A stretch of 64,000 nucleotides of DNA from Candidatus Omnitrophota bacterium (GCA_963662715.1 OY759724.1:268670-332669), one strand, 5' to 3'; numbered from the stretch's first letter, positions 56,643 through 64,000 are shown. Program-made: numbers and translations. Notes: generated by a model not told the origin, from the letters alone.

Positions 56643-57797
56643 TTATACTTTACGGCGCATTACAACTTTAAACATGTTCCCATCTTTATCATTGACAAAA
56701 TCAATATCTGGATACTCTTTTAAAGCTCTTTGCACGCCGGTCCCGATCCCGCGATAGGGTAATATCTTTGTTGCAAATGAAGACAATATTGGATTGCGTA
56801 CATTGGAATTACCATTTTTGATATTCTCAACTGTCAAGTTATTGGGCAAATGACCAGGACTAATAAATTCAAGACGGTTATCAAATATGAATATTCTTAT
56901 GGATGCAGAAATAAAATAATCTCTATGGATTAATGCATTGACCAATAACTCCTCAATTGCTATTTCGGGTATTTCAAGCACTCCAAGAGAATTAATATTT
57001 TGACCATTTTGAACTTTTTTTAAATTTCTAAGAATAAACGATTTGCTTTCTTTGAAAACGTCTTCTAATTTTCCTACCACATCAACACTTTCTATATATG
57101 TTGTTGAATGAATGTCATTGCCTGGATAACATATAGCCTTAACTATGCTTCTAACTGGCAACTTTATTTGTGGATTTTTAGCAAAAAGAAGTGCTCCACC
57201 TACATTCATATTTCCATCTTTCATCAAATTCATGTTTTCCAGAAGGACTGGAAGAGGGTTTTCTTGATCATCGAGCTTGATCCCATTGATTTTTTCAAAA
57301 AACATGGAAAAATATTGCACGTCTAATTCAGCAACAGTCATATTAGAAATAATTTCCTCATCCCCATGTAGTAAACCAGCTTTTTGAAATAACCGTTGTA
57401 TTTCTTCTTTGGCAGTAGCTTTGCGTTTGTCTGCACCACTTTTTACCCAGAAAACGCCATCTTTGTCAGAATACGGCTTGCTTATACCATCTATGACAGT
57501 AATAATGATTATAATCTTTCCGTCTAACGAAATGTTTTCCGTATGGGGATTAATGGGATTCTTGACATGCTGGGATGCTGCGTTAGATATCAGATTATTC
57601 AATCGGTTAATATCCTGCTGTGACAAACCAACAATATCACCATTATCGTTTACACCGATAAATATTTGTCCTCCTCCAGAATTACTAAAAGCAATCATTT
57701 CTTGTGCTAATGAAATCTCGTTGGTGAAATCCTGTTTGAATTGATGTTTACTATCTTCCCCCCGAGAAATTATTTCTAAGAATTCTGTAACTTCCAT
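56643..57797 (-). CDS. AlbA_2 (Schlafen-like) domain plus HATPase-like domain protein (putative regulator/ATP-binding protein)
   Basis: 384 aa; N-terminal divergent AAA/AlbA_2-like region (FLEIISRGEDSKHQFKQDF...AFSNSGGGQIFIGVNDNGDIVG) and a C-terminal domain resembling the RecG-C-terminal/HATPase_c_4 family. Assignment by pattern. Confidence 0.55.
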   Translation of the reverse strand: MEVTEFLEIISRGEDSKHQFKQDFTNEISLAQEMIAFSNSGGGQIFIGVNDNGDIVGLSQQDINRLNNLISNAASQHVKNPINPHTENISLDGKIIIIITVIDGISKPYSDKDGVFWVKSGADKRKATAKEEIQRLFQKAGLLHGDEEIISNMTVAELDVQYFSMFFEKINGIKLDDQENPLPVLLENMNLMKDGNMNVGGALLFAKNPQIKLPVRSIVKAICYPGNDIHSTTYIESVDVVGKLEDVFKESKSFILRNLKKVQNGQNINSLGVLEIPEIAIEELLVNALIHRDYFISASIRIFIFDNRLEFISPGHLPNNLTVENIKNGNSNVRNPILSSFATKILPYRGIGTGVQRALKEYPDIDFVNDKDGNMFKVVMRRKV

Positions 57798-60418
57798 ATC
57801 TGATAAATCTCCTTTCGTCGATTAAAAGCCTCTTTACCACCTTCCATAATATCGACTATTTTCTTCTGTGTGTATGGGCAGTCAATATTCCCTTTATCGA
57901 CATCAATTTTATCATCCGTATAATGACACGCAAAAATACACTCAGAATCGCCAAGTACTGGTATATTCGCATTGTGTGTGGCAAATATAAATTGAGTTCC
58001 TTCCTTTAGTTCCTTTATGAGCTTTATAACATCTTCATAGATTGTCTGATTATCCAAATCATCCTCTGGTTGATCAATCAATATTAAATCGTTGTCTCGT
58101 TGACTTAAAACAAAAAGAATTAATGCCGATGCCCTTTGTCCGAGAGAATGATGTTTTAATTCCTTCCCCCGATAATTAATCGTAAAACGATTAGGTACTT
58201 GCCAAGTAAGCAATTCAATCAAATTATCATTAAAATAACTCTCGAAAATATTTGAGGCTGCCCCTAACATGTCCTTTACTTTTTCGAATTCCTTAAACAT
58301 TGCTCCAAAATCTGCGAACGACTCTGACAAACTTTTAAAGGTGGTTTCTCTAATTTTGCTACCACGAAAGATGTTTTTCATATAATCGACGCATGCGTTC
58401 TTATCTTCTTTAAATTCAACGATAATTTGTAGAGCAGAATGATTTTTATTAACCTTTTCAAGTTCTGCTTGGACTGCGATATATTCTTCATGCCATAAAT
58501 TGTTTAAAGCAGTCAACTCCGTGATTAATTCTGTCTTTAATTTTGCTTGTTGAGTTTGTTGTTTCTCAAGAGCTGTTAACATTTGAGTTGCCTGATCAAC
58601 AATTTTCTTTAATTTTAGGAATTCGTCAGGACGTATTGCTTGTGCACCTTTCTCTTTTAACTCCTCCGAAAGTTTTCTCTCTATCTCAGCAAATTCTTCT
58701 TTAAGACCATTTTTCAGTTTGTCAAATTCTTGCGCACGACTAGTCAAATCATTTATGCCGGAAGTCGCGATTTCAAAAGCCTTTTTAATCTGCTCAAATG
58801 ATTGAATAATTTTTGTATATGATTCAAAATATCTTAAAAAGAAATCTTTGTTGCGCTTTGACTCATAACGGTTTTGACTAACAATTTCATCCTCATAGCG
58901 AGCGATAAAATTTGTCAATGATCCCAAGTAATCCTTTGTTATTTTTAATACCTGTTGTGTTTTTCTACTATCTGCTTCGAAATCAATTTGTTTTTGAAGT
59001 TTATCTTCAACAGAATGTTTCTTGTAAAAATCCAGTTTAAAAACGGCGTCTTTTTTCTTTGCATCATATTCTTTCTTTTTTTCTTCAACATTTTCCAATT
59101 TTTTTAATTGGGCTATAACATCTGCGACTTTTTGTTTCTGTGCTTCAATACGGTTTCTAACACCCGCTAAATGATCTCCAACTAATTTCTCAACAAGGTC
59201 TTTTTCAAATCCTTCGCCTGAACTTGATAAATCCTTTTGTCCAAAATATATAGGCCGAGAAATAATTGTTTCTCGAATAGACACTCCTACCTGAAGAGTG
59301 TCATTAACATATACGTCGGGTTGTTCATTTAAAATGCGACGTATTTCATACTCCTGTCCCCTCCGGTCTACGGCTTTCAATACAACCTTCCCACCACTTC
59401 CCAAAACATGTTGAACTAATTTATTTTTATATACATCATCTACAACTTTGTCACCAAAAGGTATATCTAATGCATATCTTACCGCTTCCAATATTGATGA
59501 CTTCCCACTCCCACGGATACCTATCAAAGAGTTTAATTCGGGAGAGAAATCAATTTCCTTTCCCGCAAGCACACCCCCCTCAAAAGATATACTTTTAACA
59601 AAAGAATGCTTATGTTCAACGGGTTTAGAAGCAACTCTGTTAGCAAAGTCAACTAAGGCATACTTAACAGCGCCAAAATTAAAATCACCAATTTTTATAT
59701 AGCATTTTTCGCCAGATCCTATTGTATCAATAGATTTACAATCTGATCCTTCAACCTCAGCGGGGTACCAATCTCCAAGCCAATTCTGAACCTTGACTCT
59801 ACATACTCTATCTTTTTCAGCCTCGTGTGTACGCACTTTTTGAAAAGCCAGTGTTTTTTCTTTAAATTGTTCATTTCTCCCCAGCTCTTGAATGCGTCCT
59901 CCCGAAAGACTTCCCCATAAACCATTGTCTGCCTCGACATGAGCAAAAATGAGAAAGTAATCCCTTTCAAATTTATCTAATTCACGAATCGTCTCTAATA
60001 AATCATGATTTGATCTAGCATTTTCGTTATCATAATTAGGTTGTCCAGAAAAAGTAACATTTAAGAAGTCATTAATATAGTTTTTATTCTCAGTGTTGCA
60101 TATCCAATCATCATTAAAGACAACAAGAGCATGAACACCTGCCTTGCCATCTTTTACTGAAAGCTCTATTCCAGGCAATAAAAATATTTCTTCTTTCAAA
60201 GCGCTTTTTCTTAAGGCTTTAAACTCATCTAGATCAAATTTATTATGATTCGTAATTATTCCCAAACGAATGCCATTATTTTTTAATGCAACAACATATT
60301 CATTTATGAAATTATTTTTATCTCCCTCGCAGGTGAATTCTTTATCTTTAATCGTGTGCAAGTGAAAGTCAGCACGAATCCAAGTAGAACCATATTTTAA
60401 CAAATTAATATCACTCAT
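57776..60418 (-). CDS. PHP-domain phosphoesterase fused to SMC/Rad50-like ABC ATPase (defense-like)
   Basis: 880 aa. N-terminal PHP motifs (WIRADFHLHT, ITNHNKF, FAHVEADNG); Walker A IGIRGSGKSSILEAV; ~400 aa coiled-coil-rich insertion; C-terminal signature-like LGQRASALILFVLSQ, Walker B LILIDQPEDDLD, H-loop FIFATHNANI. Confidence 0.7.
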   Translation of the reverse strand: MSDINLLKYGSTWIRADFHLHTIKDKEFTCEGDKNNFINEYVVALKNNGIRLGIITNHNKFDLDEFKALRKSALKEEIFLLPGIELSVKDGKAGVHALVVFNDDWICNTENKNYINDFLNVTFSGQPNYDNENARSNHDLLETIRELDKFERDYFLIFAHVEADNGLWGSLSGGRIQELGRNEQFKEKTLAFQKVRTHEAEKDRVCRVKVQNWLGDWYPAEVEGSDCKSIDTIGSGEKCYIKIGDFNFGAVKYALVDFANRVASKPVEHKHSFVKSISFEGGVLAGKEIDFSPELNSLIGIRGSGKSSILEAVRYALDIPFGDKVVDDVYKNKLVQHVLGSGGKVVLKAVDRRGQEYEIRRILNEQPDVYVNDTLQVGVSIRETIISRPIYFGQKDLSSSGEGFEKDLVEKLVGDHLAGVRNRIEAQKQKVADVIAQLKKLENVEEKKKEYDAKKKDAVFKLDFYKKHSVEDKLQKQIDFEADSRKTQQVLKITKDYLGSLTNFIARYEDEIVSQNRYESKRNKDFFLRYFESYTKIIQSFEQIKKAFEIATSGINDLTSRAQEFDKLKNGLKEEFAEIERKLSEELKEKGAQAIRPDEFLKLKKIVDQATQMLTALEKQQTQQAKLKTELITELTALNNLWHEEYIAVQAELEKVNKNHSALQIIVEFKEDKNACVDYMKNIFRGSKIRETTFKSLSESFADFGAMFKEFEKVKDMLGAASNIFESYFNDNLIELLTWQVPNRFTINYRGKELKHHSLGQRASALILFVLSQRDNDLILIDQPEDDLDNQTIYEDVIKLIKELKEGTQFIFATHNANIPVLGDSECIFACHYTDDKIDVDKGNIDCPYTQKKIVDIMEGGKEAFNRRKEIYQIWKLQNS

Positions 60419-63471: not shown

Positions 63472-64000
63472 TTATACCCGATCATGGCTTAAAGAATCAT
63501 GAAAGTCCCGCAGAGTTTTAAATTTTTTGCATATATTAGAATTGAATAATTTTTCATGATGAGCAACAAAGTCCTTATTGGAAATGTTGGGGTCAATGAT
63601 GTTTATGATTTTTTTCTTATTTGAAGAACTTTGCCTAATCAAATTATTTAGCTCATTGTCAGAATTCATGAAGCTTTTCCCTACCAAAAACACTTCCTCC
63701 GCTTCTTCAAGTAAAGAATATAATTTTTTTAAGTGTTTGCGGAAGATGTCATATTTTCGATAAGTATATTTTTTTAAGTAATACGGCAAAATTAATGGAA
63801 AAGGTGTTTGTGCCTTTTTATCATTGAGTTTTTTCTGAAACATTTCAGAAGAAACGCCCGGAGACAGCAAATAAACGATTTTTTGGCCATAGCATGTGGG
63901 GTCTGTGAACCAGTTAAATGACCCGTGAATTTTTAGGAGTGTTATGCCATTCTTAGTCCCGACATCATCCGGGAGTACAATATCTGTATAGCCCAAACCA
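63472..64000 (-). CDS. SIR2-like (DHS-like NAD-binding) domain protein, C-terminal part (gene continues beyond window end)
   Basis: The ORF is open to the window edge. The motif LLKIHGSFNW resembles the conserved xLHGS segment of SIR2-family domains found in defense proteins. The N-terminus and catalytic region are not visible. Confidence 0.35.
   Translation of the reverse strand, partial: GLGYTDIVLPDDVGTKNGITLLKIHGSFNWFTDPTCYGQKIVYLLSPGVSSEMFQKKLNDKKAQTPFPLILPYYLKKYTYRKYDIFRKHLKKLYSLLEEAEEVFLVGKSFMNSDNELNNLIRQSSSNKKKIINIIDPNISNKDFVAHHEKLFNSNICKKFKTLRDFHDSLSHDRV

Follow-up and report, generated by a model that had tools for sequence, protein, structure and literature searches.

A trlF-trlG temperature restriction locus standing behind an AbiEi gene in a Candidatus Omnitrophota genome: a mobile two-gene module with a probable role in antiphage defence

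In this study, we examined a 64,000-nt stretch of the genome of a Candidatus Omnitrophota bacterium (GCA_963662715.1, OY759724.1:268670-332669; hereafter the window, with all positions counted from its first letter), in which an initial annotation, made from the sequence alone, had proposed a defence island. The flagged genes were located as open reading frames (ORFs) on the minus strand, and all of them were recovered there with unchanged coordinates. We found that the core of the group, at 56643..60418, is the trlF-trlG pair of the temperature restriction locus (TRL), described in Photorhabdus laumondii as the operon trlR-trlF-trlG (Hapeshi et al. 2020, Front Microbiol, PMC7554251), a published pair that the initial annotation had not recognised. 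The genes, their domains and the junction between them are laid out as follows.

60450..61055, minus strand: abiEi-like gene, 201 amino acids (aa), winged helix-turn-helix (wHTH) antitoxin/autorepressor of the type IV AbiE pair, without the AbiEii toxin
60430..60448: DNA junction of about 20 nt between abiEi and the TRL cassette
57776..60418, minus strand: trlF, 880 aa, PHP domain plus SMC-like ABC ATPase
59639..60391, minus strand: PHP phosphoesterase domain of TrlF, residues ~10-260
59213..59602, minus strand: N-terminal half of the TrlF ABC head with Walker A, residues 273-402
58445..59212, minus strand: coiled-coil insert of TrlF, residues 403-658
57779..58444: C-terminal half of the TrlF ABC head (signature, Walker B 'LIDQPEDD', H-loop) plus the invariant C-terminal tail, residues 659-880
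56643..57797, minus strand: trlG, 384 aa, Schlafen/AlbA_2 domain, middle domain and GHKL-like HATPase_c_4 domain
57417..57758: Schlafen/AlbA_2 domain of TrlG, residues 14-127, with the motif E14-D-S-x-x-Q19-F-K21 at 57735..57758
56709..56906, minus strand: HATPase_c_4 domain of TrlG, residues 298-363

The AbiEi gene does lie 5' of the 880-aa gene on the same strand, with a gap that measures 31 nt rather than the 32 bp first given, and this gap holds only a GAGGAGG ribosome-binding site. The start of trlG overlaps the stop of trlF by 22 nt, just as originally described for the AlbA_2 gene. Such translational coupling would be expected to have TrlF and TrlG made in fixed proportion.

The 880-aa protein had been likened to the Ppl class of antiphage systems. 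It reached 561.2 bits over residues 10-873 against the NCBIfam equivalog model TrlF_fam_ATP (NF045780, cutoff 350), whereas its 138.6 bits against the NCBIfam Ppl model (NF042955) fall far below the cutoff of 1000. Other TrlF members score about 200 bits against the same Ppl model, and the PADLOC Ppl model (PDLC02208) aligns with residues 9-317 only (E=1.9e-33). By profile score, the protein is a member of the curated TrlF family and Ppl is its sister family; the shared architecture and detectable homology stand, while membership in the Ppl class does not.

The proposed architecture of TrlF, an N-terminal PHP domain joined to a Rad50/SMC-like ABC ATPase split by a long coiled coil, was borne out by motifs, profiles and fold search. 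Pfam PHP gave no match in the window protein itself, and a PDB search with a profile of 28 TrlF members returned ABC/SMC proteins only and no PHP protein. The PHP assignment holds because of three other observations. Pfam PHP matches 12 of 28 diverse TrlF relatives (best E=8e-6); the metal-ligand motifs D17-x-H19-x-H21, H58, E85, H96, H160 and D226, which include the catalytic His and Asp residues singled out for checking, are conserved in the family down to 25% identity, with the last classical D-x-H motif replaced by D-x-K; and a Foldseek search with the AlphaFold2 (AF2) model (predicted local distance difference test, pLDDT, 77 and about 90 over the N-terminal domain) retrieved the PHP domains of Pol III alpha/PolC and of RNase AM (TMt 0.64, root-mean-square deviation 4.3 A).

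The ABC motifs of TrlF are likewise conserved (Walker A GSGKS, Q-loop, signature SLGQR, H-loop), and the head is split by a coiled coil of about 255 aa, modelled by AF2 as helices over residues 403-658. Structural matches comprise Smc, JetC, MukB, LmuB, Rad50, RecF and RecN, and sequence-profile matches in the PDB comprise SMC, Rad50, AriA (E=2e-8, C-terminal head) and PtuA; the PADLOC AriA models match in part only (E=1.5e-10) and the LmuB matches are weak. TrlF carries the Pfam label AAA_21, 'putative AbiEii toxin', which denotes an ABC-ATPase family and not the AbiEii nucleotidyltransferase fold. The Walker B motif reads LILID-Q-PEDD, placing Gln783 in the slot of the catalytic Glu (D782-Q783, nt 58069..58074), and this Gln is invariant across the family, down to 25% identity; in the alignment, Smc entry 5h68 has LDQVEAALD at the same position. 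The substitution predicts slow or absent ATP hydrolysis, so that TrlF probably binds ATP as a switch or clamp and is not a fast ATPase.

TrlG matches Pfam SLFN_AlbA_2 (PF04326) over residues 14-127 (E=1.3e-24, 87.5 bits against a cutoff of 25.3) and HATPase_c_4 over residues 298-363 (E=1.4e-13), and N-box-like and G2-like motifs of the GHKL type are conserved in TrlG alignments. These domain coordinates nearly equal those of P. laumondii TrlG (14-128 and 298-365; PMC7554251), and the protein is 53% identical over its full length to the TrlG homolog of Yersinia ruckeri pYR3. Foldseek with the AF2 model (pLDDT 72) retrieved 3lmm, the N-domains of SLFN11/12/13/14, the SAMD9 tRNase and, weakly, His-kinase CA domains. 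The active-site motif here is E14-DSKH-Q19-F-K21, and E-D-S-x-x-Q-F-K occurs in all 59 of 59 TrlF-linked partners. TrlG therefore lacks the canonical Schlafen catalytic motif E-x4-(E/D)-x-K (bioRxiv 10.1101/2025.07.24.666596) and has E-x4-Q-x-K instead, whereas unlinked Schlafen paralogs in the same loci retain the Glu (for example GEDSTLELK).

To establish which genes travel together, we surveyed the neighbours of TrlF relatives at 73 loci in one-genome-per-species reference genomes from many phyla (L numbers below are our locus handles). A full-length TrlG homolog, 49-78% identical, lies directly downstream of TrlF in 70 of the 73; of the three remaining loci, two are cut off by the contig end immediately behind TrlF, and all that is left of TrlF in the third, L073, is a remnant of 23 residues. 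The two genes overlap by 19-22 nt in every annotated case. None of the 73 loci holds a homolog of the window's AbiEi, XRE regulator, HEAT or 195-aa proteins, or of its SIR2 fragment. The closest metagenomic relatives, 86% and 79% identical, have the 22-nt overlap and no AbiEi, and no AbiEi stood next to TRL in the plasmid contexts seen; annotations of plasmids and of E. coli pair a 'TrlF family AAA-like ATPase' with an 'RNA-binding domain-containing protein'. In blastn comparisons of the window with five relatives, homology extends from 10-11 nt ahead of the TrlF ATG to the TrlG stop. The mobile unit is exactly trlF plus trlG, 3.8 kb of two ORFs and a ribosome-binding site, and the true conserved partner of TrlF is the downstream TrlG, not AbiEi. 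The original grouping, in which AbiEi was paired with a single-gene PHP-ATPase system and AlbA_2 was a separate defence gene, is the reverse of what was found, and the recurrence of an AbiEi and PHP-ATPase pair that it called for was not seen in any of these genomes.

Three independent TrlF-deletion alleles were noted in the survey (L070:8001-9741, L072:6632-7878 and L073:5-73). All of them keep the last 23-38 TrlF codons (IMEGG..AF..RKEIYQIWK). In L070 and L072 a full-length TrlG stands beside a TrlF without its ATPase, and in L072 an unrelated ORF upstream continues in frame into the TrlF tail.

The pair is widely and patchily spread. TrlF exceeds 60% aa identity across many phyla, 218 plasmid records carry a match covering at least 80% of TrlF, and 38 of 5426 complete E. 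coli genomes (0.7%) carry one TRL allele, always between hsdR and hsdS. TRL is rare in phage records, with two Listeria entries at 41% identity, and we rejected it as a phage gene on these grounds. The two entries (OR846775.1 and OR848124.1; H26 and H27), each of about 20 kb and labelled Listeria phage, contain a full-length TrlF relative and may be satellites or mis-binned elements.

These data bear on the view that the locus is a housekeeping DNA-repair pair of an SbcC/RecN-like ATPase and a RecG-related protein. The source annotations 'chromosome segregation protein' and 'ATP-dependent DNA helicase RecG' say as much, and the ATPase head does resemble those of SMC, Rad50, RecF and RecN. However, no equivalog model for SbcC, RecN, RecF or SMC matched above its cutoff, the Pfam scan found no helicase domain in TrlG, whose recG label is a mis-annotation and a misnomer (PMC7554251), and the pair is distributed patchily, in 0.7% of E. 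coli genomes and in 21 of 46 Photorhabdus genomes (PMC7554251), and is carried on plasmids and transposons. Distribution and domain content refute this view, to which we give practically no credence.

Elsewhere, TRL recurrently resides within defence operons. It lies between PglX and PglZ of BREX type 1 (L025, L034, L040, L044, L047, L062 and L076-78), between PglXI and BrxHI of BREX type 3 (L015, L022 and L068, with PglXI upstream also in L017, L018 and L021), and adjoins or separates the type III genes Mod and Res (L001, L048, L059, L069 and L079). A type I operon, hsdR-trlF-trlG-hsdS-AAA-hsdM, is found on a Tn7-like element of the IncC plasmid pNDM-1_Dok01, and genes for AIPR and the YhcG nuclease are also adjacent to TRL. 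At least 25 of the 73 loci have such contexts (BREX, restriction-modification (R-M), AIPR or YhcG), a lower bound that counts recurrent neighbour clusters only, annotated through representatives. TRL has the same orientation as its host BREX, type I or type III operon, with gaps of 11-100 nt. The defence-island setting originally proposed is a reasonable reading. Fusions of a Schlafen domain, a minimal His-kinase and a wHTH, closely associated with BREX loci of at least 1017 taxa, have been called backup suicidal effectors in a 2026 survey (PMC12839542), in which a text search found no mention of a PHP partner. Prokaryotic Schlafens (pSlfns) of other architectures defend against phage via tRNA cleavage, and Slfn-His-kinase fusions are the commonest pSlfn class, at 34% (Taboada et al. 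2025, bioRxiv 10.1101/2025.07.24.666596). Ppl itself is a validated single-gene antiphage system (PMC11482910).

Several of these operons hold further genes beside TRL. In the TRL-bearing operon of pNDM-1_Dok01 (L074, 159149-177764), an extra AAA ATPase gene stands between hsdS and hsdM, and the block adjoins Tn7-like genes for a TnsD-family protein, a DDE transposase and an ATP-binding protein. In L025 and L034 (2800-4376 in both), a second module of an AAA_15/AAA_21 ATPase of about 353 aa and a 172-aa gene lies between BrxC and PglX, and may be a PARIS-like accessory in the same operon. The BREX-1 operon in which the closest TRL relative resides is closely followed downstream by a ThsB-type TIR gene (L076:14192-14674).

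The only published phenotype of the family comes from Photorhabdus (PMC7554251), a study that also noted TRL homologs in Vibrio, on Pseudomonas syringae plasmids and on Y. ruckeri pYR3. There, the TRL promoter is induced by a temperature upshift, deletion of the operon relieves the temperature restriction, and complementation with the whole operon restores it. Growth at 36 C was made possible by 16 distinct spontaneous lesions, every one of them in trlG, and trlF, a target roughly 2.3-fold larger, was not hit once; by our own arithmetic, the chance of finding none of 16 in trlF, if loss of trlF also gave tolerance, is about 5e-9. TrlG is the component genetically required for growth arrest in Photorhabdus. 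Its substitutions S16N, A36V, P318R/L, S331Y, N335D and G354V fall on positions conserved in our TrlG alignments, five of them invariant and S16 a Ser in 57 of 59 sequences; this mapping assumes equal numbering, which the matching domain boundaries suggest. The explanation that loss of TrlF is lethal, as a reason for the missing trlF lesions, is weakened by L070 and L072, where TrlG is intact beside a truncated TrlF.

The same genetics weigh on a reading in which the roles are swapped, TrlG being a dead Schlafen-GHKL sensor of phage or stress nucleic acid, and the PHP nuclease of TrlF, delivered by its clamp, degrading DNA in the manner of Ppl, Lamassu and Wadjet. Such a division would fit the Q19 that replaces the second catalytic acid in 59 of 59 TrlG proteins while unlinked paralogs keep the Glu, and the PHP ligands conserved across TrlF down to 25% identity. 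It would also fit the structural neighbours JetC, LmuB and Rad50, which belong to DNA-targeting machines, and the fact that Ppl, of the same architecture, defends alone. Yet with TrlF as the only effector, most tolerant mutants would be expected to be trlF nulls, and no tolerance mutation lies in this larger gene; moreover, S16N, within the E-D-S motif, inactivates TrlG, which argues that the site matters, although a binding role would fit too. We regard the swapped arrangement as doubtful while giving it appreciable weight.

Returning to the window, the AbiEi-like protein matches the PADLOC AbiEi model PDLC02265 over its full length (E=1.6e-68), with only E=0.066 for Pfam AbiEi_4. Its identification as an AbiEi-type wHTH regulator was therefore upheld, and its membership of the conserved unit was not, since the gene lies outside the cassette DNA homology. 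For 467 AbiEi homologs, source names, where given, read AbiEi antitoxin or 'transcriptional regulator of viral defense system', and AbiEii (PF08843) or decayed AbiEii remnants follow downstream. In the closest homolog, L093 (83% aa identity), the next ORF is the N-terminus of AbiEii (PF08843, E=5.5e-10). Nucleotide homology between the window and L093 stops exactly at the AbiEi stop codon (ending at 60449), and homology to the TRL loci L076, L079, L001 and L002 begins at 60428-60429. No AbiEii ORF (PF08843/DUF1814) lies next to abiEi in the window, where trlF starts 31 nt on. Given where the L093 homology ends and that AbiEii follows there, the trlF-trlG cassette stands exactly at the abiEii position. 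We infer from this alignment that the cassette replaced the abiEii toxin gene, leaving AbiEi as the leftover antitoxin of a canonical AbiE pair. Two elements lie upstream of abiEi.

61089..61122, minus strand: promoter-like site TGGACA-17-(TG)TATAAT, about 40 nt upstream of abiEi
61089..61108: palindrome GGCAC-N10-GTGCC, overlying the -10 element of the promoter-like site

A consensus scan gave 11 of 12 matches with an extended -10 for this site, the best promoter-like site of the region, and it is probably the promoter of a three-gene abiEi-trlF-trlG operon, with the palindrome as a candidate AbiEi operator. AbiEi would then occupy the slot held in Photorhabdus by the small HTH regulator TrlR. 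The window shares with the P. laumondii TRL a TrlF that passes the equivalog cutoff, the TrlG Pfam architecture, the gene order with its stop/start overlap and a patchy horizontal spread. It differs in having no upstream TrlR-type gene, AbiEi standing there instead, in having an unrelated XRE gene on the opposite strand beyond trlG, and in its host, a low-GC environmental lineage with a conjugative type IV secretion system (T4SS) in the window. TrlR is also absent or variable in most other TRL loci. The XRE gene of the window was considered as TrlR and rejected, as it matches the pYR3 TrlR homolog at E=0.023 over 24 aa.

An alternative account takes TRL as a stress-responsive toxin or addiction module, serving plasmid or integrative-element maintenance or temperature control of growth, with no direct antiphage function and with the R-M and BREX sites as shared hot spots. 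The sole demonstrated phenotype, heat-induced arrest with promoter induction on upshift, agrees with this account, as do the frequency of TRL on conjugative plasmids and its presence on a Tn7-like element, the conjugative T4SS of the window, and a cassette that here replaces the toxin gene of a toxin-antitoxin (TA) pair. By contrast, insertion in the same orientation, with gaps of 11-100 nt, into operons of BREX, type I and type III speaks for co-transcription and not for random use of hot spots, defence is proven both for the sister family Ppl and for other prokaryotic Schlafens, and no plasmid-loss phenotype is reported in PMC7554251. We consider a pure addiction function unlikely.

The remaining genes of the proposed island lie outside the conserved unit.

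56193..56456, plus strand: XRE-family HTH gene, convergent with trlG, Pfam HTH_3 E=2.3e-8; outside the conserved unit
56121..56139: perfect palindrome ACATACC-N5-GGTATGT upstream of the XRE gene
63472..64000, minus strand: SIR2-like C-terminal fragment, 174 aa, continuing past the window end; outside the conserved unit

The XRE gene with its flanking palindrome is present as first described. A GC profile shows a low-GC block (0.30-0.36) at about 56.0-61.5 kb that takes in the XRE gene and the TRL block; beyond 61.5 kb, GC is 0.44-0.47 over a HEAT-repeat gene and 0.39-0.42 over a gene with no family match. The SIR2 fragment forms a separate low-GC patch (0.34, against 0.42-0.47 for the two intervening genes). 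It matches PADLOC SIR2 models at E=9.3e-10, 1.7e-7, 3.5e-6 and up to 1e-3, on the 174 C-terminal residues that lie in the window, and had no Pfam match at E<=0.01. These residues are what the window offers for comparison with the SIR2-based defences Thoeris, DSR and SIR2-HerA. A SIR2-like gene at the edge was thus confirmed as a fragment, whereas a single contiguous island was not, because two unrelated genes of native GC separate SIR2 from the rest; nor do XRE and SIR2 belong to the group as linked members, as neither lies near TRL at any of the 73 loci.

Taken together, an AbiEi-regulated single-gene Ppl-class system forming one island with independent AlbA_2 and SIR2 genes, as the initial annotation had it, could draw on the partial Ppl similarity, on an AbiEi gene 31 nt upstream on the same strand and on the SIR2-like matches at the window edge. 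Opposed to these are the 139 bits against a Ppl cutoff of 1000 where the TrlF model was passed, the absence of AbiEi from all 73 loci against an AlbA_2 protein in 70, the position of AbiEi outside the cassette DNA homology, and the native-GC genes before SIR2. We judge this arrangement very improbable.

Further into the window, genes of a conjugative T4SS extend over 29267..41562 on the minus strand (VirD4/TraG, a DUF3363 protein, VirB11, VirB10/TrbI, VirB9/CagX, VirB6/TrbL and VirB4/TrbE). The window is probably part of an integrative conjugative element that carries the TRL block as cargo; no tRNA gene marks an integration boundary within the window. Three other minus-strand genes were noted. 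A 755-aa UvrA-like ABC protein (21101..23368; ABC_tran, UvrA_DNA-bind) adjoins the conjugation genes and may be a UvrA paralog carried by the element. A 2155-aa secreted protein (47093..53560) contains many repeats of the YD/Rhs type and, ahead of a variable C-terminus, a DPxGL-like motif; from reading its translation, it looks like an Rhs-family polymorphic toxin. A 180-aa protein (55192..55734), likewise read from its translation, ends in a PEP-CTERM-like sorting signal (..PEPCTLFLFSTGLAGVFGSRKKRR).

Comparison with known systems places TRL beside several of them. Ppl (Gao et al. 2020) resembles TrlF in its N-terminal PHP domain, ABC ATPase with coiled coil and length of about 880 aa, with homology of 139-250 bits, and differs in acting alone, whereas TrlF has an essentially constant Schlafen-GHKL partner and scores far below the Ppl cutoff. 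PARIS, like TRL, consists of two genes for an ABC ATPase and a nuclease-type partner, often lies within BREX and type I R-M loci, and has genetics that make the non-ATPase partner the toxic element; for the C-terminal head of TrlF, its AriA is one of the nearest relatives of known structure (E=2e-8). Unlike TrlG, a Schlafen-GHKL protein, AriB is a TOPRIM protein, and neither Pfam nor PADLOC found a TOPRIM protein in the TRL locus. TrlF also adds a PHP nuclease and a long coiled coil, and PARIS has Ocr as its trigger, whereas no such trigger is known for TRL. The pSlfns of Taboada et al. 2025 share with TrlG the Schlafen/AlbA_2 domain with a His-kinase-like domain and the defence-island association; the protective ones (a DUF262 fusion and an Ig-like fusion) act alone with E-x4-(E/D)-x-K, whereas TrlG has E-x4-Q-x-K and is coupled to TrlF, and the preprint names no ATPase partner. 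Lamassu LmuB and Wadjet JetC resemble TrlF in their SMC-like head and coiled coil by Foldseek, but their kleisin/KITE or LmuA/LmuC partners are absent here, the TrlF coiled coil is much shorter, and its PHP nuclease is in cis. The window shares with the AbiE type IV TA system a bona fide AbiEi with a promoter-proximal palindrome, and differs in that the AbiEii nucleotidyltransferase toxin is absent, with trlF-trlG in its exact place.

Collectively, we read 56643..60418 as a TRL ortholog, a horizontally mobile module of two genes that halts growth of the cell carrying it when triggered and likely has an antiphage, abortive-infection role; we put this at roughly 0.6. TRL in general is probably an abortive-infection or defence module. 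In our model, TrlF and TrlG would form a sensor-effector complex like AriA-AriB of PARIS, in which TrlF, with a PHP nuclease of its own, may serve as an SMC-like sensor or clamp in the ATP-bound state, and TrlG as a Schlafen-fold nucleic-acid-binding protein or nuclease with GHKL ATP binding that executes or licenses growth arrest. The trigger may be phage infection or inactivation of a neighbouring restriction or BREX system, heat being an accidental trigger in Photorhabdus. Once triggered, TrlG, possibly with the PHP nuclease of TrlF, would attack RNA or DNA, and growth would stop in an abortive infection. In the window, the cassette would sit in a low-GC cargo block and be transcribed from an AbiEi-controlled promoter.

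Several points weigh against this model. The searchable literature yielded no phage challenge of TRL and no phenotype other than temperature restriction, and PADLOC v2, whose run on the region named AbiEi in full (E=1.6e-68) and Ppl over residues 9-317 only, has no model for the TrlF-TrlG pair. The window offers no adjacent R-M or BREX system to guard. The Gln at the second acidic position in 59 of 59 TrlG proteins questions RNase activity, and TrlF, which keeps nearly all PHP ligands, may itself be the effector. An undamaged TrlG beside an ATPase-less TrlF in L070 argues against a strict scheme in which TrlF restrains a lethal TrlG. Finally, the AbiEi-TRL junction was seen once only, and the predicted AbiEi regulation of TRL follows from position and the promoter-like site.

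A more specific form of the model is possible, and we advance it tentatively. TRL would be an uncatalogued, widespread abortive-infection system that guards R-M and BREX, in which a Gln-locked, ATP-bound TrlF holds or licenses TrlG, perhaps tethered through the TrlF tail; the restriction seen in Photorhabdus would be accidental firing, and the locus described here an AbiEii swap.

In summary, the locus is a further member of an already named family, and the window's own value is modest: its sole unusual feature is the replacement of AbiEii, a single observation, with a conjugative T4SS also encoded in the window. If the replacement is true, a cassette behind AbiEi in the place of AbiEii would represent toxin-module swapping between defence systems. 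For the family, the significance is broader. TrlF-TrlG has thousands of homologs in about 500 clusters at 50% identity, across many phyla, plasmids and E. coli, and is among the more abundant conserved gene pairs within BREX and R-M operons. Its two family-wide active-site substitutions, the D-Q Walker B of TrlF and the E-x4-Q-x-K of TrlG, offer mechanistic handles, and native E. coli alleles make it a concrete, testable system. The temperature-restriction phenotype of 2020 and the defence-island context belong together, suggesting that a phenotype that limits host range may be that of a misfiring immune module.

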